This document shows, piece by piece, positions 27,100 through 43,482 of a stretch of 64,000 nt of DNA; the first letter of the stretch is position 1; each line of letters begins with the position of its first letter. The notes under the pieces are model-generated. The model ran no database searches and had not been told where the DNA came from. It worked only from the letters and a program-made list of their open reading frames with translations. The stretch lies in assembly GCA_945879015.1 (NCBI GenBank), contig CAMCUO010000001.1, forward strand, positions 42,659 through 106,658. Direction: 5' to 3'. Origin of the DNA: Chitinophaga pinensis. GTDB lineage: Bacteria; Bacteroidota; Bacteroidia; 2-12-FULL-35-15. Position numbers and translations under genes: made by a program.

Positions 27100-29031
27100 A
27101 TGATTTCAGTAAATTCAGTTACGGTTTCCTTTGGAGGTTACGATTTGTTTGATAATGTTAGTTTTTTGGTGAATCCAAAAGATAGAATTGGTCTTGCCGG
27201 TAAAAATGGAGCGGGAAAATCAACAATGTTGAAGCTTTTGTCTGGAGAGCAAAATCCAACAAAAGGAGAAATTTCAAAACCAAATGATTTTCGAATAGGT
27301 TATTTGCCTCAAGATATGATTCATCAGCATGGAAGAACTGTGTTTGAAGAAACGGCAACAGCTTTTGAAGAGATTCAAAAATTAGAAATACGTTTAGGTG
27401 TTGTTTCGCATGAATTGGAAACTAGAACAGATTACGAGAGTGATGCTTATATGAATTTAATTACCGAGCTAACGGATATCAATACTCGTATGGATATTAT
27501 TGGAGCAGGTAATAGAGAAGAGGAGATAGAAAAAATATTAAAAGGATTAGGATTTGAGAGAACAGATTTTAATCGTCAGACAGCGGAGTTTAGCGGTGGA
27601 TGGCGTATGCGAATTGAATTAGCGAAAATTCTTTTGAAAAAACCTGATATTCTTTTATTAGATGAACCTACCAATCATTTGGATATTGAGTCTATTCAAT
27701 GGCTGGAAGAAACGATGGAGACATTTGCTGGATCTGTAATGTTGATTAGTCACGATAGGCAATTTTTAGATAACGTTACTACTCGTACTATTGAAATATC
27801 AAATAATAAAATTTACGATTATAAAACAAACTATTCTCGCTATTTAATTTTGCGTCAGGAACGTAAAGAGCAACAGGAGAATGCTGCAAAAAATCAGCAA
27901 AAAGTAATTGATCAAACAGAAGCATTAATTGATAAGTATCGCGCAAAGGCAAGTAAAGCAGCATTTGCACAATCCTTAATTAAGAAATTAGATAGAATGG
28001 ATTTGGTTGAAGTTGATGAAAGTGATACTTCAACAATGGCTTTTCGTTTTCCTCCTCCAGCTCTTTCTGGTAAAATTGTAGTTACGGTTGAAGATGCAGG
28101 AAAAGTATACGGAACAAAACGTATTTTCAAAGGAGCCAATTTTATTTTAGCAAAAGGAGAAAAAATTGCTTTAGTAGGTCGAAATGGTGAAGGAAAGAGT
28201 ACTATGATGAAAATGATTGCCCAACAAGTGGATTTTGAAGGAACGGTTCAGTTAGGTCATAATGTAATGATGGGTTACTTTGCTCAAGATCAGGCGGAGC
28301 GATTAGATCCTAACAAAACAGTTTTTGAAACCATTGATGAACTTGCGGTTGGTGATGTGCGAAAACAAGTTCGTACAATGTTGGGTTCGTTTTTATTCGG
28401 TGGTGAAGACATTGATAAAAAAGTGAGAGTATTAAGTGGTGGTGAGCGCGGAAGATTAGCATTGTGTAAACTATTGCTTCAGCCTTATAATTTGTTGGTA
28501 TTAGATGAGCCTACCAATCACTTAGATATTAGAAGCAAAGAAGTTTTAAAAAAAGCGATTCTTGCTTATGAAGGAACAGCAATAATTGTTTCTCACGACA
28601 GAGATTTTTTAGCAGACCTTACCGAAAAAATGTATGAGTTCCGAAATGGTGAAGTAAAGGAGCATTTAGGTGGTATTGTTGAGTTTATGGAAAAGCTAAA
28701 GATGTATCGACTAACAGAGATGAATACAAAAAGTCCTTTCATAAAAGCAAAAGTTGAAGTAAAAGAGGAAAAGCCCAAAGTAGATACCCGTGTTGCTGAT
28801 GAACGTGCTAAAGAGTTGAAAGTAATTGCAAGTCAGATAGCAAAATCGGAAAAGGAAATAGAGCGTTTAGAAGCGGAAATCAAACTTTTTGATGACAAAC
28901 TTTCAGACTCTTCGCAATATCAAGCTGTAGTAAATGATAAAGAAGCCTTTGCTAAGTACGAAGAATTGAAAAAGCAATTGAATTCTGAAATGCTTAATTG
29001 GGAAGGCTTACAAGGGAAAATAGAAGGTTAA
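27100..29031 (+). CDS. ABC-F family ATPase (tandem ABC domains plus a C-terminal coiled coil)
   Basis: Two copies of Walker A (GKNGAGKST and GRNGEGKST) and the signature motifs LSGGWRMR and LSGGERGR are present. There is no transmembrane domain. Confidence 0.9.
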   Translation: MISVNSVTVSFGGYDLFDNVSFLVNPKDRIGLAGKNGAGKSTMLKLLSGEQNPTKGEISKPNDFRIGYLPQDMIHQHGRTVFEETATAFEEIQKLEIRLGVVSHELETRTDYESDAYMNLITELTDINTRMDIIGAGNREEEIEKILKGLGFERTDFNRQTAEFSGGWRMRIELAKILLKKPDILLLDEPTNHLDIESIQWLEETMETFAGSVMLISHDRQFLDNVTTRTIEISNNKIYDYKTNYSRYLILRQERKEQQENAAKNQQKVIDQTEALIDKYRAKASKAAFAQSLIKKLDRMDLVEVDESDTSTMAFRFPPPALSGKIVVTVEDAGKVYGTKRIFKGANFILAKGEKIALVGRNGEGKSTMMKMIAQQVDFEGTVQLGHNVMMGYFAQDQAERLDPNKTVFETIDELAVGDVRKQVRTMLGSFLFGGEDIDKKVRVLSGGERGRLALCKLLLQPYNLLVLDEPTNHLDIRSKEVLKKAILAYEGTAIIVSHDRDFLADLTEKMYEFRNGEVKEHLGGIVEFMEKLKMYRLTEMNTKSPFIKAKVEVKEEKPKVDTRVADERAKELKVIASQIAKSEKEIERLEAEIKLFDDKLSDSSQYQAVVNDKEAFAKYEELKKQLNSEMLNWEGLQGKIEG

Positions 29032-29084
29032 ATTCGAAGCTTTTAAAATAAATTTGTTTTGTACTTGAATTATTACATATATTT

Positions 29085-29159
29085 GCCAAAGAAATGGAAA
29101 CAATGTTATCTATACATCATCATCATACTTACTCAACAGGTAAGCAGGAGATGTATTGT
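29085..29159 (+). CDS. Putative his operon leader peptide (24 aa, METMLSIHHHHTYSTGKQEMYCVN)
   Basis: Four consecutive His codons lie at 29106-29117. The peptide is followed by a terminator hairpin and then hisG. Confidence 0.5.
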
Positions 29160-29187
29160 GTGAATTAACACAAGATAGCAATATCAT

Positions 29188-29216
29188 ATATCTAAAGGGC
29201 TTACCATTGTGGTAGG
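29188..29216 (+). terminator. His attenuator terminator
   Basis: The stem gggcttacc/ggtaggccc has one G-U pair and a loop of attgt, and is followed by tttttt. Confidence 0.6.
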
Positions 29217-29264
29217 CCCTTTTTTATTTCCCCAATTTTGAATTAATAAAAACATACAATAAAC

Positions 29265-30119
29265 ATGAAACTAAAAATAGCAATACAAAAGTCAGGACGA
29301 TTGAATGAAGATTCTCTCAAAATTTTAAAAGAAGCTGGAATAGAATTTAATAATGGAATCAATAAATTGAAGGCCGAAGCAGTAAATTTTCCCTTAGAGG
29401 TGTTTTTCCTTCGCGATGATGATATTCCTCAATATATTGAAGATGGTGTTGCGGATATTGGAATCGTTGGCGAAAATGTAGTTCTTGAGAAAAATAAAGA
29501 TGTAAAAATTGTAGATCGTTTAGGGTTTGGCAAATGTCGTTTGTCAATTGCTATACCTAAAAATCAAAAATACAAAGGCCTTTCTGATTTAGAAGGAAAA
29601 CGAATTGCCACAAGTTATTCTAAAGTTCTTTCGAAGTATTTAAAGAAAAACAAAATAAATGCTGAGATACACGAAATAAGCGGGTCGGTGGAAATTGCTC
29701 CAGGAATAGGCTTGGCGGATGCTATCTGCGATTTGGTTAGCTCCGGAAGTACTTTATTCACAAACGGACTGAAAGAAGTGGAAGTGATATTGAAATCGGA
29801 GGCGGTTTTGGTTGCGAATAATAATTTATCAAAAGAGCAACAAGTTATTTTAGATAAATTACTTTTCAGAATAAATGCAGTTAAAAAAGCAAAGAGCAAT
29901 AAATATATTTTGTTAAATGCACCGAATAAAAATTTAGATGCGATCTGTAAGATTTTACCAGGCATGAAAAGTCCTACCATCTTGCCTTTGGCAGATAAAG
30001 GTTGGAGCTCTGTTCATAGCGTAGTAAATGAAAACGAATTTTGGGACATCATCGAAAAATTGAAAGCAAATGGAGCAGAAGGGATTTTGGTGGTTCCGAT
30101 TGAAAAAATGATACTATAG
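29265..30119 (+). CDS. hisG: ATP phosphoribosyltransferase (long form)
   Basis: MKLKIAIQKSGRL... is present, and a C-terminal regulatory domain is included. Confidence 0.92.
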   Translation: MKLKIAIQKSGRLNEDSLKILKEAGIEFNNGINKLKAEAVNFPLEVFFLRDDDIPQYIEDGVADIGIVGENVVLEKNKDVKIVDRLGFGKCRLSIAIPKNQKYKGLSDLEGKRIATSYSKVLSKYLKKNKINAEIHEISGSVEIAPGIGLADAICDLVSSGSTLFTNGLKEVEVILKSEAVLVANNNLSKEQQVILDKLLFRINAVKKAKSNKYILLNAPNKNLDAICKILPGMKSPTILPLADKGWSSVHSVVNENEFWDIIEKLKANGAEGILVVPIEKMIL

Positions 30120-30125
30120 CCATCT

Positions 30126-30149
30126 CCCTTCGACTCCGCTCAGGGTGAC
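30126..30149. repeat. Half-unit of the CTTCGACTCCGCTCAGGGTGAC repeat between hisG and hisD
   Basis: The sequence is cccttcgactccgctcagggtgac. Confidence 0.6.
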
Positions 30150-30175
30150 AATTAATTTAAACGAATAGCGAATCT

Positions 30176-31453
30176 GTGAAAACAATAAAATATCCATTAA
30201 GAAGTGATTGGTCTGAATTAATAAAACGACCAATTTTTGATAATGCTTCGCTTGAAAGTGCTGTTAAGGCTGTGTTGCTTGATGTTAAGCAAAATGGCGA
30301 TGTGGCAATAAAAAAGTATACAAAACAATTTGATAAAGTAGAACTTGAAAAGTTGCTTGTAACTGAAGAGGAATTTATAGAAGCAGAAAAAAATGTTTCT
30401 GATAATTTGAAAAATGCAATTCATTTAGCAAAATTAAATATCGAAAAATTTCACATTACTCAAAAAGAAGATATTAAAGTTGTTGAAACTACAGATGGTG
30501 TTTTGTGCTGGAGAAAATCGGTAGCAATCGAAAAGGTTGGTTTGTATATTCCTGGTGGTTCTGCTCCTTTGTTTTCCACTGTTTTAATGTTGGGAATTCC
30601 AGCAGCTCTTGCTGGATGCAAAGAAGTTTTATTATGTAGTCCGCCAGATATAAATGGAAAAATTAATCCTGCAATTTTGTACACAGCAAAATTAGTTGGA
30701 ATAACAAAAGTGTTTAAAGTTGGAGGAGCACAAGCAATAGCTGCAATGGCTTATGGAACTGAAACTATTTCGAAAGCGTATAAAATATTCGGACCAGGAA
30801 ACCAATATGTCACTTGTGCTAAACAATTGGTAAGCAGCGAAGGAATAGCTATTGATATGCCTGCTGGTCCATCAGAAGTGGCAACATTGGCGGACGAAAC
30901 CTGCGTTCCTGCATTTGTTGCTGCGGACCTTCTATCACAAGCTGAACACGGAGCAGATTCTCAGGTAATATTGGTTTCTACAGATGAGAAGGTCATTGAA
31001 GATGTAATTACTGAATTGAATAAACAAGTTGAATTGTTGCCAAGAAAAGCAATCGCTATCAAAGCCCTTGAAAACAGTAAAGCAGTTTTAGTCAAAGATA
31101 CAGATGAGGCTTTTGATTTATTAAATGAATATGCTCCTGAACATTTAATTATAGCTTGTAAGGATGAGGAAGTTTTAGCAGAGAAAGTGATCAATGCAGG
31201 ATCTGTTTTTTTAGGAAACTATTCTTGTGAAAGTGCAGGTGATTATGCTTCCGGAACAAATCATACCTTGCCAACCAATGGAAATGCAAAAGCATATAGT
31301 GGAGTTTCATTAGATAGCTTTATGAAAAAAATTACATTCCAGAAAATATCAGAAAGAGGAATTAATATCATTGGAAAAGCAATAGAAATAATGGCTGAGG
31401 CCGAGGGATTAAGTGCTCACAAGAATTCAGTAAGTATCAGACTAAAAAAATAA
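30176..31453 (+). CDS. hisD: Histidinol dehydrogenase
   Basis: Family-level match across the length. The apparent start is a GTG at 30176. Confidence 0.9.
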   Translation: MKTIKYPLRSDWSELIKRPIFDNASLESAVKAVLLDVKQNGDVAIKKYTKQFDKVELEKLLVTEEEFIEAEKNVSDNLKNAIHLAKLNIEKFHITQKEDIKVVETTDGVLCWRKSVAIEKVGLYIPGGSAPLFSTVLMLGIPAALAGCKEVLLCSPPDINGKINPAILYTAKLVGITKVFKVGGAQAIAAMAYGTETISKAYKIFGPGNQYVTCAKQLVSSEGIAIDMPAGPSEVATLADETCVPAFVAADLLSQAEHGADSQVILVSTDEKVIEDVITELNKQVELLPRKAIAIKALENSKAVLVKDTDEAFDLLNEYAPEHLIIACKDEEVLAEKVINAGSVFLGNYSCESAGDYASGTNHTLPTNGNAKAYSGVSLDSFMKKITFQKISERGINIIGKAIEIMAEAEGLSAHKNSVSIRLKK

Positions 31454-31457
31454 GATC

Positions 31458-32525
31458 ATGTTTCAATTAAACAATATATTAAGAGAAAATATCAAGAAAT
31501 TAGTTCCTTATTCATCTGCTAGAGATGAGTACAAAGGAAAGGTTGGAATATTTTTAGATGCCAATGAAAACTCATTTGGTTTCCCTGTTTCTTATGATGG
31601 CACAAGTAACTTAAATCGATATCCTGATCCTTTGCAATTATCTGTAAAAGAAAAGTTAAGCAAAATAAAAGGTTTACCTATTGAAAATATATTTTTAGGC
31701 AATGGAAGTGATGAGGCAATTGATATTTTATTCAGAGCATTTTGTAATCCTGGAAAAGATAATATTATTGTTTGTCCGCCTACCTATGGAATGTATGAAG
31801 TGTCTGCAAATATCAATGATGTTGAAGTTGTGAAGGTTCCTTTGATTGAAGAAACATTTCAATTGGATGAAGCAAGCATTCTTAAATCAATTAATGCCAA
31901 TACAAAGTTAATTTTTATTTGTTGTCCGAATAATCCTACAGGAAATGGTGTAGCATGGAATACTATTAAAAAAGTACGAGATAACTTTAATGGAATTGTA
32001 GTAATTGACGAAGCGTATATAAATTTTGCAAGTTATAGAAGTTTGATTCCTGAATTGTTGAACTATCCCAACTTAGTTATTCTGCAAACTCTGTCGAAAG
32101 CATGGGGTTTGGCTGGATTGAGGGTTGGAATGGCATTCGCATCGGAGCCAATAATAGCTATTTTTAATAAAATTAAGCCTCCTTATAATATTAATGTTGT
32201 TTCTCAAGAACTTGTATTAAAAGCTCTGGATAATATGAAACAAGTGAACGATTGGATCGAAACAATTGTTGAAGAGAGAGAGAAGTTTGGTTTAGAACTG
32301 AATCAACTGTCGTTTGTGAAGAAAGTATATAAAAGTGAAGCAAATTTTATTTTAGTAAAAGTGGAGGATGCTTCAGCATTATATTATTATTTAGCTCAAA
32401 ATCAAATTGTAGTTCGCGACAGAAGTAAAGTTGTTTTATGTGACGATTGTTTAAGAATTACAATAGGTACAAAAGAAGAGAACAGACAATTAATTTCCAT
32501 ATTAAAAAAATATAAAAATGGCTAA
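31458..32525 (+). CDS. hisC: Histidinol-phosphate aminotransferase
   Basis: The class II aminotransferase fold is present, with the PLP lysine in [14 protein letters not shown]. Confidence 0.9.
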
Positions 32526-33630
32526 GAAAGTATTGTTTATAGACAGAGACGGGACATTGATTTGGGAGCCGCCCACAGATTTTCAAATCGACAGTTTCGA
32601 GAAATTTAAGTTTTTACCTGGAGTAATTACCTGGTTAGGGAAAATAGTTTCTGAATTGGATTACGAATTGGTAATGGTTACCAATCAAGATGGGCTTGGT
32701 ACGGATAGCTTTCCAGAAAATACATTTTGGCCAGTACAAAATTTGATGATAGAAATATTGGAGTCGGAAGGAATAAAGTTCTCTGAAATTTGTATTGATA
32801 GAACTTTTGAAAAAGATAAGCAACCTACCCGTAAACCGAATACAGGTATGTTAACCAAGTATTTGAATGGTAATTACGATTTGAAAAAGTCTTTTGTAAT
32901 TGGTGACCGATTGACAGATGTGAAACTGGCTAAGAATCTAGGTTCAAAAGCAATTTTCATAAATAATTACGATAAAGCAGATGGTTTTGAAAGTGAGATC
33001 GCTCTTCAGGCAGAAAATTGGAAACAGATATATGATTTTTTGAAACTGCCTGAGAGAAAAATTGTTCAGGAGCGAATCACTAAAGAAACATCCATTTCTA
33101 TAGAATTGAATTTAGACGGCAAAGGAAATTCTAAAATTTCAACAGGCCTGGCATTCTTTGACCACATGCTGGAACAAATTGCTAAACATGGAAACATAGA
33201 TTTGAATGTTAATGCTAAAGGAGATTTGCAAATTGATGAACACCACACGATTGAAGATGTTGGAATTGCTTTGGGAGAAGCCTTCTTAAAAGCATTGGGA
33301 GATAAAAAAGGAATAGAAAGATATGGTTTCCTTTTGCCAATGGATGATTGTCTGGCACAAGTTGCTTTGGATTTTGGTGGAAGAAATTGGATTGTTTGGG
33401 AAGCAGAATTCAAGCGGGAGAAGATCGGTGAGATGCCTACTGAGATGTTTTTTCACTTTTTTAAATCATTCAGCGATGCATCAAAATGTAATTTGAATAT
33501 CAAAGCGGAAGGAACAAATGAACACCATAAGATCGAAGCCATTTTCAAAGCTTTTTCAAAAGCAATTAAGATAGCCGTAAAAAGAGATCCAAGCAATATG
33601 AGTTTGCCAAGTACAAAAGGAGTTTTATAA
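32518..33630 (+). CDS. hisB: Bifunctional histidinol-phosphatase / imidazoleglycerol-phosphate dehydratase
   Basis: The N-terminal HAD motif FIDRDGTL is followed by a C-terminal IGPD domain containing IDEHHTIED and EHHKIEA. Confidence 0.92.
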
Positions 33631-34212
33631 ATGAAAGTAGCAATAGTTAAATATAATTCGGGAAATAGCTGTTCAGTTGCATTTGCATTGGAGCGGATAG
33701 GTATTTCTGCTTTGATAACATCTGAAATAGATGAAATTAAAACTGCAGATAAGATCATTTTTCCTGGGGTTGGTGAAGCAAGCAGTGCTATGAAATTCTT
33801 GCGTGATCAAAAACTGGATAAAGTTATTGTTGGTCTAAAACAGCCGGTTTTAGGAATTTGTCTGGGGATGCAGTTGTTATGCGAGAAATCCGAAGAAGGC
33901 AATACGGATTGTTTGGGTATCTTCAAACAAAGGGTGTTAAAATTTTCTGAAGAGAATAAGGTTCCTCAAATCGGTTGGAATACAATATCGAATCTGAAAT
34001 CTCCTATTTTAAAAAATGTGAAAGAGATGGAGTACATGTATTTTGTCCATGGATATTATGCGGAAAAATCAGTTGATACAATAGCGAGTACAAACTATGG
34101 ATTGGAATACAGTTCGGCATTGCAAAAAGATAATTTTTACGGAGTGCAATTTCACCCTGAAAAATCAAGTGATGCAGGACAGAAAATTTTAGAAAATTTC
34201 ATAACCCTATAA
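33631..34212 (+). CDS. hisH: Imidazole glycerol phosphate synthase, glutamine amidotransferase subunit
   Basis: The GATase1 domain with the catalytic Cys in GICLGMQLL is present. Confidence 0.92.
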   Translation: MKVAIVKYNSGNSCSVAFALERIGISALITSEIDEIKTADKIIFPGVGEASSAMKFLRDQKLDKVIVGLKQPVLGICLGMQLLCEKSEEGNTDCLGIFKQRVLKFSEENKVPQIGWNTISNLKSPILKNVKEMEYMYFVHGYYAEKSVDTIASTNYGLEYSSALQKDNFYGVQFHPEKSSDAGQKILENFITL

Positions 34213-34214
34213 GC

Positions 34215-34937
34215 ATGCAAATAATACCAGCAATAGATTTGATAGATGGAAAATGTGTAAGGTTAACGCAAGGAGATTATACGCAAAAAATAATCTACAA
34301 TGAGAATCCGGTGGAAGTTGCAAAGCTATTTGAAGATATCGGAATTAAACGTTTGCATTTGGTTGATTTGGACGGAGCAAAAAAAGGAGAAGTTGTAAAT
34401 TATAAAGTGTTAGAAAAAATTGCTTCTCAAACAAAACTAATAATTGACTTCGGTGGAGGAATTAAAACAAGTGAAACTATTAAAATTGTTTTTGAATCCG
34501 GGGCTTCACTTGCAGCTATTGGCAGTGTTGCTGTGAAAGAGAAAGATTTGTTTTTTTCTTGGATAAAAAAATACGGTGCAGATAAAATTTTATTAGGTGC
34601 TGATGTGAATGAAGAAAAGATCGCGATCTCCGGTTGGCTAGAAAAGACAGAGATAAATATTTTCGATTTTATAAAAGAAAATATGAATGAAGGAGTTGAA
34701 ACTATTTTTTGTACAGATATTTCTAAAGATGGATTATTGCAAGGAGCAAGTGTTGGGCTGTATAAAAAAATTATTGAACAATTTCCAGCACTTAATTTAA
34801 TTGCAAGTGGCGGTGTTACATCGCTGAAAGATTTGGATGAATTAAAATGGATTGGTTGTTCCGGCGCTATTGTTGGTAAAGCAATTTATGAAGAGCGAAT
34901 TTCAATGAAAGATTTAAAGAAATACATAGCATGTTAA
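34215..34937 (+). CDS. hisA: ProFAR isomerase
   Basis: [17 protein letters not shown] is present. Confidence 0.92.
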
Positions 34938-35686
34938 CAAAACGAATTATTCCATGTTTGGATATTAAAGATGGCCGCACCGTAAAAGGTGTGAATTTTG
35001 AAAACATCAGGGATGCCGGAGATCCGATTGTGTTGGCAATTGAATATTCTAAACAAGGAGCAGATGAATTGGTTTTTTTAGATATATCTGCAACCAATGA
35101 AAAAAGAAAAACATTATCCGAAGTAGTAAATAGAATTGCAAAAAATATTAATATTCCTTTTACTGTCGGAGGTGGAATTAGTTCTGTTGAGGATGTTTAT
35201 GAGATATTAAATTCCGGAGCAGATAAGGTTTCTGTAAATACTTCTGCATTCAAGAATCCTTCATTGATCAATGATTTGGCAAAGAGATATGGAAGTCAAT
35301 GTGTGGTTGTTGCAATTGATACTAAGTTCGAAAATGATGACTGGTATGTTTATTTAAATGGAGGGAAAGTGAAGACAGAAAAAAAGGCAGCCGATTGGGC
35401 AAAAGAAGTTGTTGGTTTGGGGGCAGGTGAAATTTTATTGACATCGATGAACAATGACGGAACAAAAAATGGATTTGCAAATGACATCACAAGAGCGATC
35501 TCCGAAAGTGTAACTGTTCCAATTATTGCAAGTGGTGGAGCAGGAACGATGGAACACTTTAAAGATGTTTTTGTAACTGGGAAAGCAGATGCAGCGTTAG
35601 CTGCCAGTGTTTTTCATTTTAAAGAAATTGAAATTCCTACTTTAAAAAAATATTTAAACGAACAAAAAATAACAATAAGATTATGA
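34931..35686 (+). CDS. hisF: Imidazole glycerol phosphate synthase, cyclase subunit
   Basis: [19 protein letters not shown] is present. Confidence 0.93.
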
Positions 35687-36276
35687 TTCCAGATTTTAAA
35701 AAATTAACAGATGGATTAATTCCAGTAATTATTCAAGATAATAAAACAAATGTAGTTTTGATGTTGGGTTATATGAATGAAGAAGCATTTCAAAAAACGG
35801 CTGCAGAAAAACGTGTTACATTTTATTCGCGTTCAAAAAATCGTTTATGGACAAAAGGGGAGGAAAGTGGAAATTATTTGGAAGTAGACCAACTTTTATT
35901 GGATTGTGATCTTGATACAATTTTGATAAAAGCTAGTCCCAAAGGGGTGGTTTGTCATACTGGGGCAGATACCTGTTTTTGTGAGGTAAATAGCCCGAAT
36001 TTTCTGTATCAATTAGAGGAAACTATACGTAAAAGGAAGTCGAATCCGACCCAGGACTCTTATATTTCCTCGCTTTTTGCCAATGGGTTGAATAAAATAG
36101 CTCAAAAAGTGGGCGAAGAGGCTGTGGAACTTGTAATTGAGGCGAAAGACAATAACGATGAATTGTTTGTAAACGAGGCGGCAGATTTACTGTTTCATTA
36201 CTTGATTCTATTGTCAGCAAAGGGTTTTAGCTTAGATGATGTTATAGATGTGCTAGATAAAAGGGGCAAAAAGTAG
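35683..36276 (+). CDS. hisI: Bifunctional phosphoribosyl-AMP cyclohydrolase / phosphoribosyl-ATP pyrophosphatase
   Basis: The N-terminal HisI region LIPVIIQD is followed by a C-terminal HisE region ELVIEAKD. Confidence 0.9.
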
Positions 36277-36420
36277 TTCGTTTGGGCTTGAATATTTATT
36301 TTTAAGGCAATTTTTAGAGAAAAAATATCGTTTTTTAGCCCTAATATTTAATTAATTTTCTTATAATTGGTTAACTTTTGTAGGAAAATCAGCAGTTTTT
36401 AGATTAAGCTTGATTATTAT

Positions 36421-36999
36421 ATGGATTTAAATAAGAGCGGTTCAGTAGAAGAAGCCATTTTTGCTAATAAAGTAAATGGTATTAGGGCTGCTTTTAATGT
36501 TGCGGATAAGAAGATAATTGTTTCGCACATTGGAGAGCTGGATCAAGTTAAAGTGAATACCATCTCTACATTAGTGGAAACACAAATGGAGTACCTCGGA
36601 GTTAGCAAAAGTGCCATCAAAAAGATTTTTAATATTGTTATCGAAACACTTCAGAATATTTGTATTCATGGAGAAAAGGATAATAATGGTTATCAAATGA
36701 CTTATTTTATTATTGGTAAACACAATAATGAGTTTACTTTATTTTCTGGAAATATTATAAATAATACGATAGTAGAAAAGCTTAATAAGAGATTGAATTC
36801 TATAAAATCATTAGGTGATTCTGATTTAAAAAAACAGTATATGGATGTTCTTTCAAATGGGGAGCTTTCATCAAAAGGAGGCGCTGGTTTAGGTTTTTTA
36901 ACTATTGCTTTAAAATCAAATAACAACATAGATTTTGATTTTGAAATGTTAAATAAAGAGTATTCATTATTTTCACTTCAATCAAAAGTATTAGGATAA
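36421..36999 (+). CDS. Putative GHKL-type Ser/Thr kinase-like protein (SiaB / anti-sigma-factor-kinase-like)
   Basis: An N-box-like ETLQNICIHGE and a G2-box-like GGAGLGFLTIA are present. The gene is translationally coupled to the downstream DUF1987 gene, with a 1 nt gap. Confidence 0.4.
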   Translation: MDLNKSGSVEEAIFANKVNGIRAAFNVADKKIIVSHIGELDQVKVNTISTLVETQMEYLGVSKSAIKKIFNIVIETLQNICIHGEKDNNGYQMTYFIIGKHNNEFTLFSGNIINNTIVEKLNKRLNSIKSLGDSDLKKQYMDVLSNGELSSKGGAGLGFLTIALKSNNNIDFDFEMLNKEYSLFSLQSKVLG

Positions 37000-37000
37000 C

Positions 37001-37378
37001 ATGAAACGACTAGAATTAGCACCTTCGAACAATACTCCACATATTATTTTGGATGTAGATTCAGATGTTTTATTAATTGAAGGAAAATCTTTTCCAGAAG
37101 ATAGCAAAGAGTTTTATCGTCCAGTAATAGAGTGGATAGATGAATTGAAAACTACTAATCCTAGAAAAATTAAAATACGCTTTAATTTATTTTACTTAAG
37201 TTCATCATCTATAATATCCGTAAAACAATTTTTAATGAAAGCTGTTGAGTTGAGCAATGCAGGTGCACAAACAACTGTTTTATGGTCGTACGATGAAGAT
37301 GATGATGACATTAAAAAAATAGGAGAAGATTATCAAAAGTTGACGAAGTTAAATTTTGAATATAAAATCAACGAATAA
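37001..37378 (+). CDS. DUF1987 (SiaC-like) putative phospho-acceptor partner-switch protein
   Basis: GKSFPEDSKEFYRPVIEWIDEL and FNLFYLSSSSIISVKQFL parallel the SiaC family. The protein is 125 aa. Confidence 0.6.
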   Translation: MKRLELAPSNNTPHIILDVDSDVLLIEGKSFPEDSKEFYRPVIEWIDELKTTNPRKIKIRFNLFYLSSSSIISVKQFLMKAVELSNAGAQTTVLWSYDEDDDDIKKIGEDYQKLTKLNFEYKINE

Positions 37379-37392
37379 AATTTAATAGATGT

Positions 37393-37430
37393 AAGAAAAA
37401 ATCCCCAGACTTAAGCCTTTGGGGATTTTT
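37393..37430 (+). terminator. Rho-independent terminator
   Basis: The stem atcccca/tggggat is followed by a T8 run. Confidence 0.6.
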
Positions 37431-37607
37431 TTTGCTTTTATCAAATACTGAAAATGAAAAGAAAATAATTTTACACTTCCCCATAAATCAAGTACTTTGT
37501 TAGCTTTAGTTTATAACCAAACTTAGATTTAAGTTAAATTGATTACTAACCGCTATTTGTAGACTTATAACAGATGTAAGATTGGATGGTGTTTTGTTGG
37601 GGGATAT

Positions 37608-37716: not shown

Positions 37717-40332
37717 TTACATCTTCATAATTAGCTCTACGGCTTTATCTATGTTATAAGCACCTTCGGGAGCATTTTTGTCGAAAATCATCATATACTT
37801 ATACTTATCGGAACCTGATAATTCGGCCCAAACTTTACCTAGTTGCAATTTTTCTACACTATCTGAATTGTCTCTGTCAGAACCTTTTGTTTCTGCTAAT
37901 ATGACAATTTTCTTTTTTGTAACAATTATAAAATCAGGATAATGATTGGACTTGTATCCATTTAATGAAAATCCTTTACCTCTTGATAGATTTCTATGCC
38001 AAAAAGCAATATTTGAACATCCTGCTATTTTTAAAATAAATTCTTCTTCCAAAGAATTCATATCGCCTTCATGAACGTACAAAGAATTTCCAATATCGCC
38101 ACTGATTTTGCTAGGTATGATAGCTTTTGGAAAAGGCCAGGAAGGTTTTGTTTTAATAAGACCAATTACCTTATATTCAATAAATTGTTTTTCTGCGTGT
38201 ATGTCAGACAGTTTATTTATATGTTGCTTAATTTTGTCAGTGTAAGTTAGTTTACGTTGTATAAAATCTTTTAATTGTTCAGCATCTTTATCTTCTAAAA
38301 TACGGTTTATGTATTTTTTGATTTGCTGGTCAGGAATGGGATATATTTTACCAATTTGTTGCATTACTTGATGTGTAATGTCTTTTATTTGGCTCTCTCT
38401 AGGTTTTGCTAAAATAAATTCATTCAATCTTTGTTGATCTGAAGAGTTTTCTAGTTTGAAGGCACTCATTTTTGATTCATCTGATTTCGTTTGCTCAATG
38501 TCTATCTTATATAGTTCGGATGTAATGCCATCAAAAGGAATATCTATATCTTTTTCTGAAAGTTTAAAACCTCCTAATAGAGTTGATCGATCTAATAATT
38601 CTAGACCATCTGATTCCGAATTGAAAATACTTAGGTTGTCAGTAAGGAAAACAAATTTCGGCAAAAGGATAACTTTTGCCAGTTCTGCAACATTTTGTCG
38701 CATCCCATATTCTTTTATTTTTATTCCCACGTCAGAAAATATTTGTGTAGATGAGTTATTGTCAAATTCTGCAATTTGTTTTTCTATTTCAGCACTTTCT
38801 GAAATGGCAATCGTCTCAATTTCTTTTATGGAAGGAGGCGAAATAATTGAATTCCCTTTTTCTGTGCTAAAAGATATTTTATTTGTATTAAATGGTAGCT
38901 CTTCAGTTTTTATTTCAATAGTTGTTTCAATTTTTGTTTTTTCCTCTTCTGGCATTGCATCTTTTTCGCGATAATCTTTTTCACTGAACCCGGATTCTTT
39001 TAATCCTTTAATAATGTTCTGAAGTGTTTCATTAAATTTTGTAGATGCAGTAATTACGTAAGATAAATTTAATAAAGGGTCAGAATGTTTCATTACATAG
39101 GGTTGTCTAAGAATTCGACCTAAAATTTGTGTAACATCTACAGGTGATGATCTGTCTGCGAGTGATGCAAGGATATATGCAAAAGGACAATCCCAACCTT
39201 CCTTTAGTGCGTTGATTGTAATAACATATCTGACAGGGCAATTTTTATCTAAGAGATTAACTCCTTTTAATTCATCTTTATTGGCTGTTTTTATTTTTAT
39301 CTGTTGTTCAGGTATTCCAACTTTTATTAATTGTTCTTTTAGTTTATCAAAAGTGGTATTGTCTTCTTTTCCTTTAGATTGTGCCTGAAATAAAACTATA
39401 GGACGAATGTATTTTCCTCCTGTTGTTTCTTCTTGTTTTGCTAAGTCTTCTAATCGCTGTTGTAAATGCAAAGCACTTTCTATAACACCTTCTTTGTCCT
39501 GTTGATTGTAAACAATTACAGGCAGTTTTACCATGTGTTCCTTTTTAAGTTCAATGGCTGGAACCAAGCTGACAATATTAGCATTGTCTTTTGGGGTAGC
39601 TGTTAAATCAAGAATGAAACTAGGATTTAAATTACGTAGCATATCAACGCTCAAATCGCTTTCGGCATTATGGCTTTCATCTACCACTAAAATCGGATTT
39701 AAACTTCGGATAATATTTATCAATGATGTTTCATCTGTTCCTTCTAATAGATGCGATGTAGTTGCGTTTGATAATGCAAATGTTGACAATGCTCCGTTTT
39801 GCTCAAATATTTTTCTGTCATCCTTATTTTTTGCACGAATGGATGCAAAATTCATCACCATAATCGTTAGCTGTTCTTGAACAATGGATGGATTAAAGCT
39901 TGACCCTTGTAATAAATCTTTTTTCTCGTATACACAAATACGATTATTGAACAATGCATTTAATTTTTGGCAATAAGGATGATCGGGATCAGAAAGGTTT
40001 TTAACTGTTTGATCCAAAAGGTTGCTCCATGGAACTAACCATACTACAGCCTTTGTTTTGTTCTCTGGCATTGCATCAAAAATTGTTTTGATAGCATTGC
40101 AGGCAATGAATGTTTTTCCGCCAGCTGTTGGAACTTTAATACACAAGTGAACAGCATCAGGAACATTTTGTTGATAAGGGCGCATTCCTTCTTCGGAGAT
40201 AGGATTGTATGGACCAACTTTATCTCTCCAATAATTATTAAAAGCTTTATCTGCTTCTTTATCTTTTTGAAGATAAGCAAAGTAGTTAGAAAGATCCTGA
40301 ATGACCTGTTTTTGATACGATTTTAATTCCAT
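37717..40332 (-). CDS. Type III restriction enzyme, Res subunit (SF2 helicase plus a C-terminal PD-(D/E)xK nuclease)
   Basis: The helicase motif I PTAGGKTF, the DEAH-like LVVDESHN and motif VI QILGRILRQ are present. The C-terminal nuclease motif is YPDF...ILAETKG. Confidence 0.85.
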   Translation of the reverse strand: MELKSYQKQVIQDLSNYFAYLQKDKEADKAFNNYWRDKVGPYNPISEEGMRPYQQNVPDAVHLCIKVPTAGGKTFIACNAIKTIFDAMPENKTKAVVWLVPWSNLLDQTVKNLSDPDHPYCQKLNALFNNRICVYEKKDLLQGSSFNPSIVQEQLTIMVMNFASIRAKNKDDRKIFEQNGALSTFALSNATTSHLLEGTDETSLINIIRSLNPILVVDESHNAESDLSVDMLRNLNPSFILDLTATPKDNANIVSLVPAIELKKEHMVKLPVIVYNQQDKEGVIESALHLQQRLEDLAKQEETTGGKYIRPIVLFQAQSKGKEDNTTFDKLKEQLIKVGIPEQQIKIKTANKDELKGVNLLDKNCPVRYVITINALKEGWDCPFAYILASLADRSSPVDVTQILGRILRQPYVMKHSDPLLNLSYVITASTKFNETLQNIIKGLKESGFSEKDYREKDAMPEEEKTKIETTIEIKTEELPFNTNKISFSTEKGNSIISPPSIKEIETIAISESAEIEKQIAEFDNNSSTQIFSDVGIKIKEYGMRQNVAELAKVILLPKFVFLTDNLSIFNSESDGLELLDRSTLLGGFKLSEKDIDIPFDGITSELYKIDIEQTKSDESKMSAFKLENSSDQQRLNEFILAKPRESQIKDITHQVMQQIGKIYPIPDQQIKKYINRILEDKDAEQLKDFIQRKLTYTDKIKQHINKLSDIHAEKQFIEYKVIGLIKTKPSWPFPKAIIPSKISGDIGNSLYVHEGDMNSLEEEFILKIAGCSNIAFWHRNLSRGKGFSLNGYKSNHYPDFIIVTKKKIVILAETKGSDRDNSDSVEKLQLGKVWAELSGSDKYKYMMIFDKNAPEGAYNIDKAVELIMKM

Positions 40333-43405: not shown

Positions 43406-43409
43406 GTAG

Positions 43410-43482
<73 letters not shown>

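Follow-up and report, generated by a model that had tools for sequence, protein, structure and literature searches.

The leader of the Escherichia coli his operon carries seven His codons, and the enterobacterial his leader is organised in six segments (A-F). In this element (hisL, Rfam family RF00514), hisG is preceded by a short ORF in which several His codons follow one another; these codons lie within the first of several overlapping alternative hairpins that end in an intrinsic terminator; the operon behind it has the order hisGDCBHAFI and encodes a long-form, feedback-inhibited HisG. The his T-box leaders of Firmicutes serve a similar goal, since they too sense uncharged tRNA(His) and choose between a terminator and an antiterminator, but they bind the tRNA directly and have no leader ORF. 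In the Bacteroidetes/Chlorobi, his attenuators are said to have been predicted by Vitreschak and colleagues in 2004. Leaders are not mentioned in a 2021 review of the his genes in Bacteroidota, and Bacteroidetes are not covered by Naville and Gautheret (2010). A leader-peptide attenuator of another amino-acid operon is nevertheless catalogued from Bacteroidetes, namely Bacteroid-trp (RF01692; Weinberg et al. 2010), which has Trp codons and precedes the trp operon.

A more direct point of comparison comes from Flavobacterium psychrophilum, whose mapped transcriptome (Guerin et al. 2021, ISME Commun, PMC9723704) includes a 129-nt 5' transcript upstream of hisG that is annotated as a leader peptide attenuation element, with a mapped transcription start site (TSS), a 19-aa His-rich peptide (MSLNQLHHHHFHICSQAKC) and read-through under specific conditions. 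The same paper reports that this leader is conserved in other Flavobacteriaceae, that it has no Rfam hit, and that expression of the hisG operon peaks in minimal nutrient media.

We describe here a leader of this general kind at positions 29053-29225 of a window of 64,000 nucleotides (by "window" we mean the whole stretch of DNA analysed). We think, with a probability of about 0.87, that it is a ribosome-mediated (leader-peptide) transcription attenuator of the histidine operon. What can be recognised from sequence in attenuators of this class is all present at this locus in predicted form: an ORF with tandem His codons upstream of hisG, an intrinsic terminator, an antiterminator that is mutually exclusive with it, and a 1:2 hairpin abutting the His codons (Table 1). 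The number of His codons, only four in the window leader, counts against this reading. All the sequence features named in the original prediction are present and its peptide is correct; exact motif searches place every one of its coordinates exactly 9 nt too low, and we use the revised positions throughout (CTTAC at 29128-32, GTAAG at 29140-44, GGTAAGC at 29139-45 and GCTTACC at 29199-205).

Table 1. Positions of the hisG leader elements and of the his operon in the window
Feature	Position	Strand	Basis and remarks
-33-like promoter element TTTG	29053-29056	+	read from sequence; contains TTG 29054-56
-7 promoter box TATATTTG (TAnnTTTG)	29078-29085	+	exact motif search
Leader ORF, 24 codons + TAA, peptide METMLSIHHHHTYSTGKQEMYCVN	29094-29168	+	ORF translation
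Four consecutive His codons (CAT x4), CATCATCATCAT, proposed sensing site	29115-29126	+	exact motif search
Segment 1, 5' strand of protector (anti-antiterminator)	29104-29133	+	predicted folds; 29104-11, 29112-21 (overlaps His codons 1-3) and CUUACU 29128-33
Segment 2, switch strand	29139-29156	+	GGUAAGC 29139-45 and GAGAUGUAU 29148-56; pairs with segment 1 or segment 3
Small hairpin UGUGU/ACACA	29157-29172	+	local prediction; in both conformations, leader stop 29166-68 in loop
Segment 3	29186-29206	+	AUAUAUCU 29186-93 (inner antiterminator helix) and GGGCUUACCA 29197-206 (terminator 5' arm)
Segment 4 and U-tract	29210-29225	+	UGGUAGGCCC 29210-19 and U-tract 29220-25; intrinsic terminator together with segment 3
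Terminator stem GGGCTTACCA/TGGTAGGCCC	29197-29219	+	followed by T6 29220-25; -15.7 kcal/mol
Regulated operon hisG-hisD-hisC-hisB-hisH-hisA-hisF-hisIE	29265-36276	+	all eight genes are NCBIfam equivalog matches above curated cut-offs

The resemblance to enterobacterial hisL covers all the traits listed above, including the gene order and the type of HisG. The window leader differs from it in having four His codons, a Bacteroidota -33/-7 promoter, an inferred 5' UTR of about 3-4 nt with no Shine-Dalgarno sequence, and a logic of four segments (1:2, 2:3, 3:4) instead of six. It is not a member of RF00514, which gave no match at E<=10 in the region 28500-29800 and none at gathering score in the window or in ten related loci. 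More generally, Rfam 15 had no matching family when that region was searched at E<=10 and the whole window and the ten related loci at gathering score; RF01692 was likewise without a match in the window. Hits such as one to Phe_leader were rejected as due to chance, this one lying on the wrong strand and being driven by the terminator. The only Rfam match at gathering score in the window, and its only tRNA, is a tRNA-Met (anticodon CAT) at 43409-43482 (- strand).

Our locus shares with the F. psychrophilum leader the phylum, a TAnnTTTG promoter, His codons that pair with downstream sequence and, in the predicted fold, a hairpin right after the His run whose 3' arm can pair with the 5' arm of the terminator; the masked-folding test described below gives the same switch there. 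Nevertheless, none of the four pairing segments has the same sequence in both (for the terminator, CCCGUUUGA/UCAAACGGG in F. psychrophilum and GGGCUUACC/GGUAGGCCC in the window), and the mapped 5' UTR of 15 nt contrasts with the 3-4 nt inferred for the window. When an nhmmer profile of the window's leader family was run against F. psychrophilum, the match was weak (13.9 bits) and limited to the His codons and the adjacent strand, the terminator segments being unrelated. We regard the window element as an uncatalogued example of a textbook class, in a phylum where this class had already been noted.

The operon begins with the next ORF after the leader, hisG, whose start lies about 40-45 nt past the T-run of the terminator. 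HisG is of the long form, with a C-terminal regulatory domain, and hisB is matched in NCBIfam by the bifunctional type. Several adjacent his genes overlap by 4-8 nt (hisC/hisB at 32518-32525, hisA/hisF at 34931-34937, hisF/hisIE at 35683-35686), which suggests translational coupling within the operon. Directly 3' of hisIE are a gene for a DUF6272 protein (36421-36999) and one for a SiaC-family regulatory phosphoprotein (37001-37378), the latter followed by a strong terminator (37394-37433); both genes may be co-transcribed with the his operon. Convergent with the operon is a gene (37717-40332, - strand) whose 871-aa product combines domains of Type III restriction (ResIII) and DEAD helicase type.

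For the comparative analysis, 80 loci were retrieved solely by HisG similarity (71-91% identity), all from Chitinophagales-like Bacteroidota and 79 of them with upstream DNA, and their leaders were aligned with MAFFT (alignment A1). The original prediction had proposed looking for a His-rich mini-ORF upstream of hisG in related genomes, and one is found in all 79 relatives with upstream DNA, each time as an in-frame ATG followed by the His run with no intervening stop. These mini-ORFs have 13-26 codons, with two to five consecutive His codons and three to six His in total, and the longest run is of four or five His in 57 of 80 leaders (the window included). Outside the His run the peptide varies both in sequence and in length (13-26 aa). 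In the window itself, (CAY)4 occurs once on the two strands together, against 0.05 expected from 100 dinucleotide shuffles, and a search for mini-ORFs with runs of other amino acids in the window gave no convincing candidate.

Upstream of the mini-ORF we recognise the elements TTTG and TAnnTTTG, which we take to be promoter elements from the published Bacteroidetes consensus. The TAnnTTTG box is matched exactly in 46 of the 79 related loci and with at most one mismatch in all 79, and TTTG precedes it by 11-27 nt (about 21 nt) in 68 of 79. From the end of the box to the leader ATG the distance is 4-20 nt in the 79 related loci, with a mode of 8 nt, which is also the distance in the window. Because the TSS of the F. 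psychrophilum leader was mapped about 5-6 nt after the box, transcription in the window would, by analogy, start at about 29090, and the leader would have a 5' UTR of some 3-4 nt, that is, it would be nearly leaderless; no Shine-Dalgarno sequence is found in this putative 5' UTR.

In folding predictions, the naked leader RNA (29086-29232) reaches -44.9 kcal/mol (z = -6.1 relative to shuffles) as a protector followed by the terminator. The protector, which alone has -21.6 kcal/mol (z = -3.0), consists of the pairings 29104-11:29173-80, 29112-18:29150-56 (including the first His codon), 29120-21:29148-49 and CUUACU 29128-33:GGUAAG 29139-44. The antiterminator segment (29137-29206), folded on its own, reaches -23.1 kcal/mol (z = -5.8), a value equalled by none of 200 shuffles, by pairing GGUAAGC 29139-45 with GCUUACC 29199-205 and AGAUGUAU 29149-56 with AUAUAUCU, with two small hairpins inside. 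The strand 29139-56 can thus pair either backwards, with the region of the His codons, or forwards, with the 5' arm of the terminator, and for 29197-206 the alternative partners are 29139-45 and 29210-19, which is the four-segment logic of a classical attenuator. The second, inner helix of the antiterminator (29149-56:29186-93) was absent from the original prediction and is predicted locally; its duplex energy relative to shuffles gives weak support across the family (median z = -0.85), and we consider it a trait of the window that is not clearly conserved.

Conservation of these pairings is strongest for the terminator. The hairpin after the leader ORF, already proposed as a terminator, is the top terminator-like site in 28000-37500. 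A hairpin of the GCUUAC type followed by a T-run stands ahead of hisG in each of the 79 relatives, as it does in the window (80 of 80 loci). In alignment A1, 98.3% of the cells of its stem are paired, with 70 double-change cells, a level reached by none of 500 shuffles, and an RNAalifold consensus recovers it unaided. In five loci of Ferruginibacter type (L045, L049, L053, L070 and L051), an extra spacer of 100-190 nt lies between terminator and hisG and holds a conserved GAGTGACACAAC...AAAGTCTGGACA-like motif, which has no Rfam match and could be a second regulatory element.

The helix between segments 2 and 3 (GGUAAGC:GCUUACC), the antiterminator pairing of the original prediction, is borne out in the family: 97.9% of 560 cells in 80 sequences are standard pairs, and sliding the 3' strand lowers this to 24-50%. 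Most of the helix is invariant or tolerates G-U, with just four double-change cells, and what the alignment offers here is conserved complementarity, mainly not compensatory change. In the divergent subgroup L030, L033 and L072, segment 3 has become GGGCUUUCC and matches another 5' partner, GGAUAGCU, which pairs in turn with AUAGC inside the His/Ser codons; judged from the sequences, this amounts to co-variation at the level of the family. The fold of the antiterminator is more stable than that of shuffles in the window (z = -4.2) and over the family (median -2.8, with z < -2 in 60 of 80 loci). It should be added that the GC-rich segment 3 finds some upstream partner in about 50% of shuffles, so that its being paired is no evidence by itself; the evidence is that the partner is fixed and conserved. 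RNAalifold on the MAFFT alignments returned, for the whole leader (A1), the terminator only and, for the antiterminator segment (alignment A2), 5 bp of the outer helix only. Since the variable interior and segment 1 are misaligned in register, we relied on constrained folding of each sequence and on register-free searches for complements.

With these methods, 78 of 80 early transcripts show segment 2 paired with the stretch that comes immediately after the His run. The 1:2 hairpin foreseen between cttac and gtaag thus stands as far as its place is concerned, and is larger than the 5 bp first suggested, since the His codons are also predicted to pair, with GAUGUAU at 29150-56. The same extension recurs in the family, where bases of the His run pair with the 3' flank of segment 2 in 77 of 80 loci. 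The stretch that separates the His run from segment 2 contains a complement to the latter of 6 bp or more in 79% of loci, and in 14% of composition-matched shuffles. Segment 2 itself, GGUA(A/G)GC, is at least 90% conserved, although it falls in reading frames 0, 1 and 2 in 34, 39 and 7 loci, respectively. Moreover, in 38 of 80 loci the leader stop is the TAA or TAG inside the GG-TAA/TAG-GC antiterminator strand itself (L004, L005, L007, L028, L051 and 33 others; columns 55-61 of alignment A1). Conservation in all three frames, together with this use as a stop codon, points to a constraint on the RNA and on the position of the ribosome, and not on the peptide. In the window the ORF reads through segment 2 in another frame and ends 27 nt past the first G of GGTAAGC; in a close metagenome relative (L166, 94% HisG identity) the leader stops just 9 nt past the first G of this strand.

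These elements suggest the following mechanism. Transcription would start a few nucleotides after the TAnnTTTG box, giving an RNA in which the leader AUG (29094) has almost no 5' UTR, and this nascent RNA would first fold into the protector (29112-21:29148-56 and CUUACU 29128-33:GGUAAG 29139-44). With charged tRNA(His) in plentiful supply, the ribosome would pass the His codons and segment 2, which would be covered, or recaptured by segment 1; GGGCUUACCA would then pair with UGGUAGGCCC and RNA polymerase would terminate at the U-tract. If charged tRNA(His) is scarce, the ribosome would stall on 29115-26, segment 1 would be melted, and GGUAAGC 29139-45, now free, would take GCUUACC 29199-205 before segment 4 is made; no terminator could form, and the polymerase would read on into hisGDCBHAFIE. 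For this response to limiting tRNA there is support by analogy, from the peak expression of the F. psychrophilum operon in minimal media.

We modelled the stalled state by masking the RNA from its start to 10 nt past the A-site His codon and truncating it ahead of segment 4. The naked full-length RNA folds into the terminator in 80 of 80 loci; in the stalled nascent RNA segment 3 moves from the terminator to the antiterminator, again in 80 of 80, pairing upstream over 6-9 nt. These predicted folds agree with the earlier claim that stalling at the His codons would favour the antiterminator. Placing the ribosome at the stop codon instead abolishes the antiterminator (at most 2 paired nt) in 45 of the 65 loci whose leaders have up to 20 aa; of the 15 loci with longer leaders, 11 (the window and 10 of 14 relatives) retain it as the nascent RNA's equilibrium fold. 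For the window, nascent RNA that is not translated and bears no ribosome adopts this fold at equilibrium as well. On these models, equilibrium folding alone would not separate the stop-codon state from the stalled state in the long-ORF subtype to which the window belongs; in such leaders the choice between on and off would rest on the order of folding and on the moving ribosome covering 29139-56. In the full transcript, furthermore, the terminator state always has the lower energy (for the window with a masked stalled ribosome, -31.2 compared with -23.1 kcal/mol), from which it follows that the switch must be kinetic. The decision in classical attenuators is likewise a kinetic one.

The possibility should be considered that the switch exists but responds to some agent other than a translating ribosome, for instance an RNA-binding protein that senses histidine, uncharged tRNA or a small ligand. 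The CAU repeats would in that case serve as a binding or pairing motif rather than as codons. The run CAUCAUCAU does pair with a GAUGAU-like sequence in the protector, so that a constraint at the level of RNA alone could keep it; C/U changes in the run are also neutral for this pairing, and CAT makes up 84% of the His codons in leaders as opposed to 55% in neighbouring genes. Such a signal would not, however, account for an ATG in frame with the run in all 79 genome loci and in 93 of 97 listed metagenome copies that pass the hairpin-plus-T-run test, for the fixed short distance between promoter and ATG, or for a stop codon that lies inside or just past segment 2 in most loci. Nor was any T-box, riboswitch or other Rfam match found in the region even at E<=10, or any T-box or riboswitch match in the window or the ten related loci, and we consider this explanation improbable.

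We think it about equally hard to credit that the leader is translated and senses histidine but acts on something other than intrinsic termination, be it Rho-dependent termination, mRNA stability or translation of hisG. That equilibrium energies favour the terminator in all states could be read in this sense. On the other hand, a GC-rich stem with a U-tract of at least 5 is kept, with covariation, in 80 of 80 loci, and the discrete 129-nt 5' transcript of F. psychrophilum ends at the equivalent hairpin (PMC9723704). Depending on the locus, the hisG start lies 20 to 190 nt past the terminator, and the hairpin thus cannot act by occluding this start.

The association of the leader with hisG reaches beyond the genomes used to define it. 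A metagenome scan with the pattern CATCAYCAY..GGTARGC..GGCTTAC lists at least 97 matches with hairpin and T-run and six more that have hisG but fail the strict hairpin test; about 17 of the listed matches are chance matches inside genes. Of the listed copies, 85 have 400 nt or more of sequence after them, and hisG follows in every one of these, its product being 52-94% identical to the HisG of the window; no copy ahead of another gene is found among the matches listed. Besides a Chitinophagales-like genome from fresh water, the carriers include numerous metagenome contigs from soil and fresh water and some from the human gut, which indicates that the family extends well beyond the first 80 genomes. 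Four human-gut contigs (L128, L159, L171 and L179) have the GGTARGC/GGCTTAC design with another peptide, MILNSRFHHHHHRSRKHR, and a HisG about 59-60% identical to that of the window; the family thus probably reaches gut Bacteroidota.

One further explanation, to which we give practically no credence, is that hairpin and T-run are the terminator of the upstream ABC-F ATPase gene (27100-29031) and the His mini-ORF a product of chance: that gene is on the same strand, its stop lies 165 nt before the hairpin and the terminator scan finds no other terminator-like site in between, but comparative data effectively refute the idea, as the element occurs in 79 of 79 relatives with differing upstream genes, divergent in 26 of 77 (including the closest relatives of the window, L001-L008), so that the hairpin does not belong to the upstream gene, a promoter-like box is conserved between the ABC-F stop and the leader ORF, so rare a motif as (CAY)4 would have to fall there by chance, and the 85 listed metagenome copies with 400 nt or more of downstream sequence precede hisG without exception.

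The attenuator reading can be carried further, although here we are more tentative and would give somewhat less than even odds. The leader peptide would be translated from an essentially leaderless mRNA; a ribosome at the stop codon, sitting on segment 2, would enforce the "off" state; and the whole would be a widespread, Bacteroidota-specific variant of attenuation with Shine-Dalgarno-independent initiation, of which the lineage of the window would be a natural read-through variant.

This leader family leaves the general picture of attenuation as it was. The about 180 aligned examples nevertheless provide a basis for the Rfam family that is missing, with which gene callers would stop overlooking or mis-annotating the mini-ORF. 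The natural variation in the place of the stop codon relative to the antiterminator, together with the predicted near-zero 5' UTR, would be useful for studying how ribosome position is read out when initiation is not led by a Shine-Dalgarno sequence. Finally, for those Bacteroidota that have this leader ahead of hisG, it offers a testable annotation for the control of an expensive pathway.
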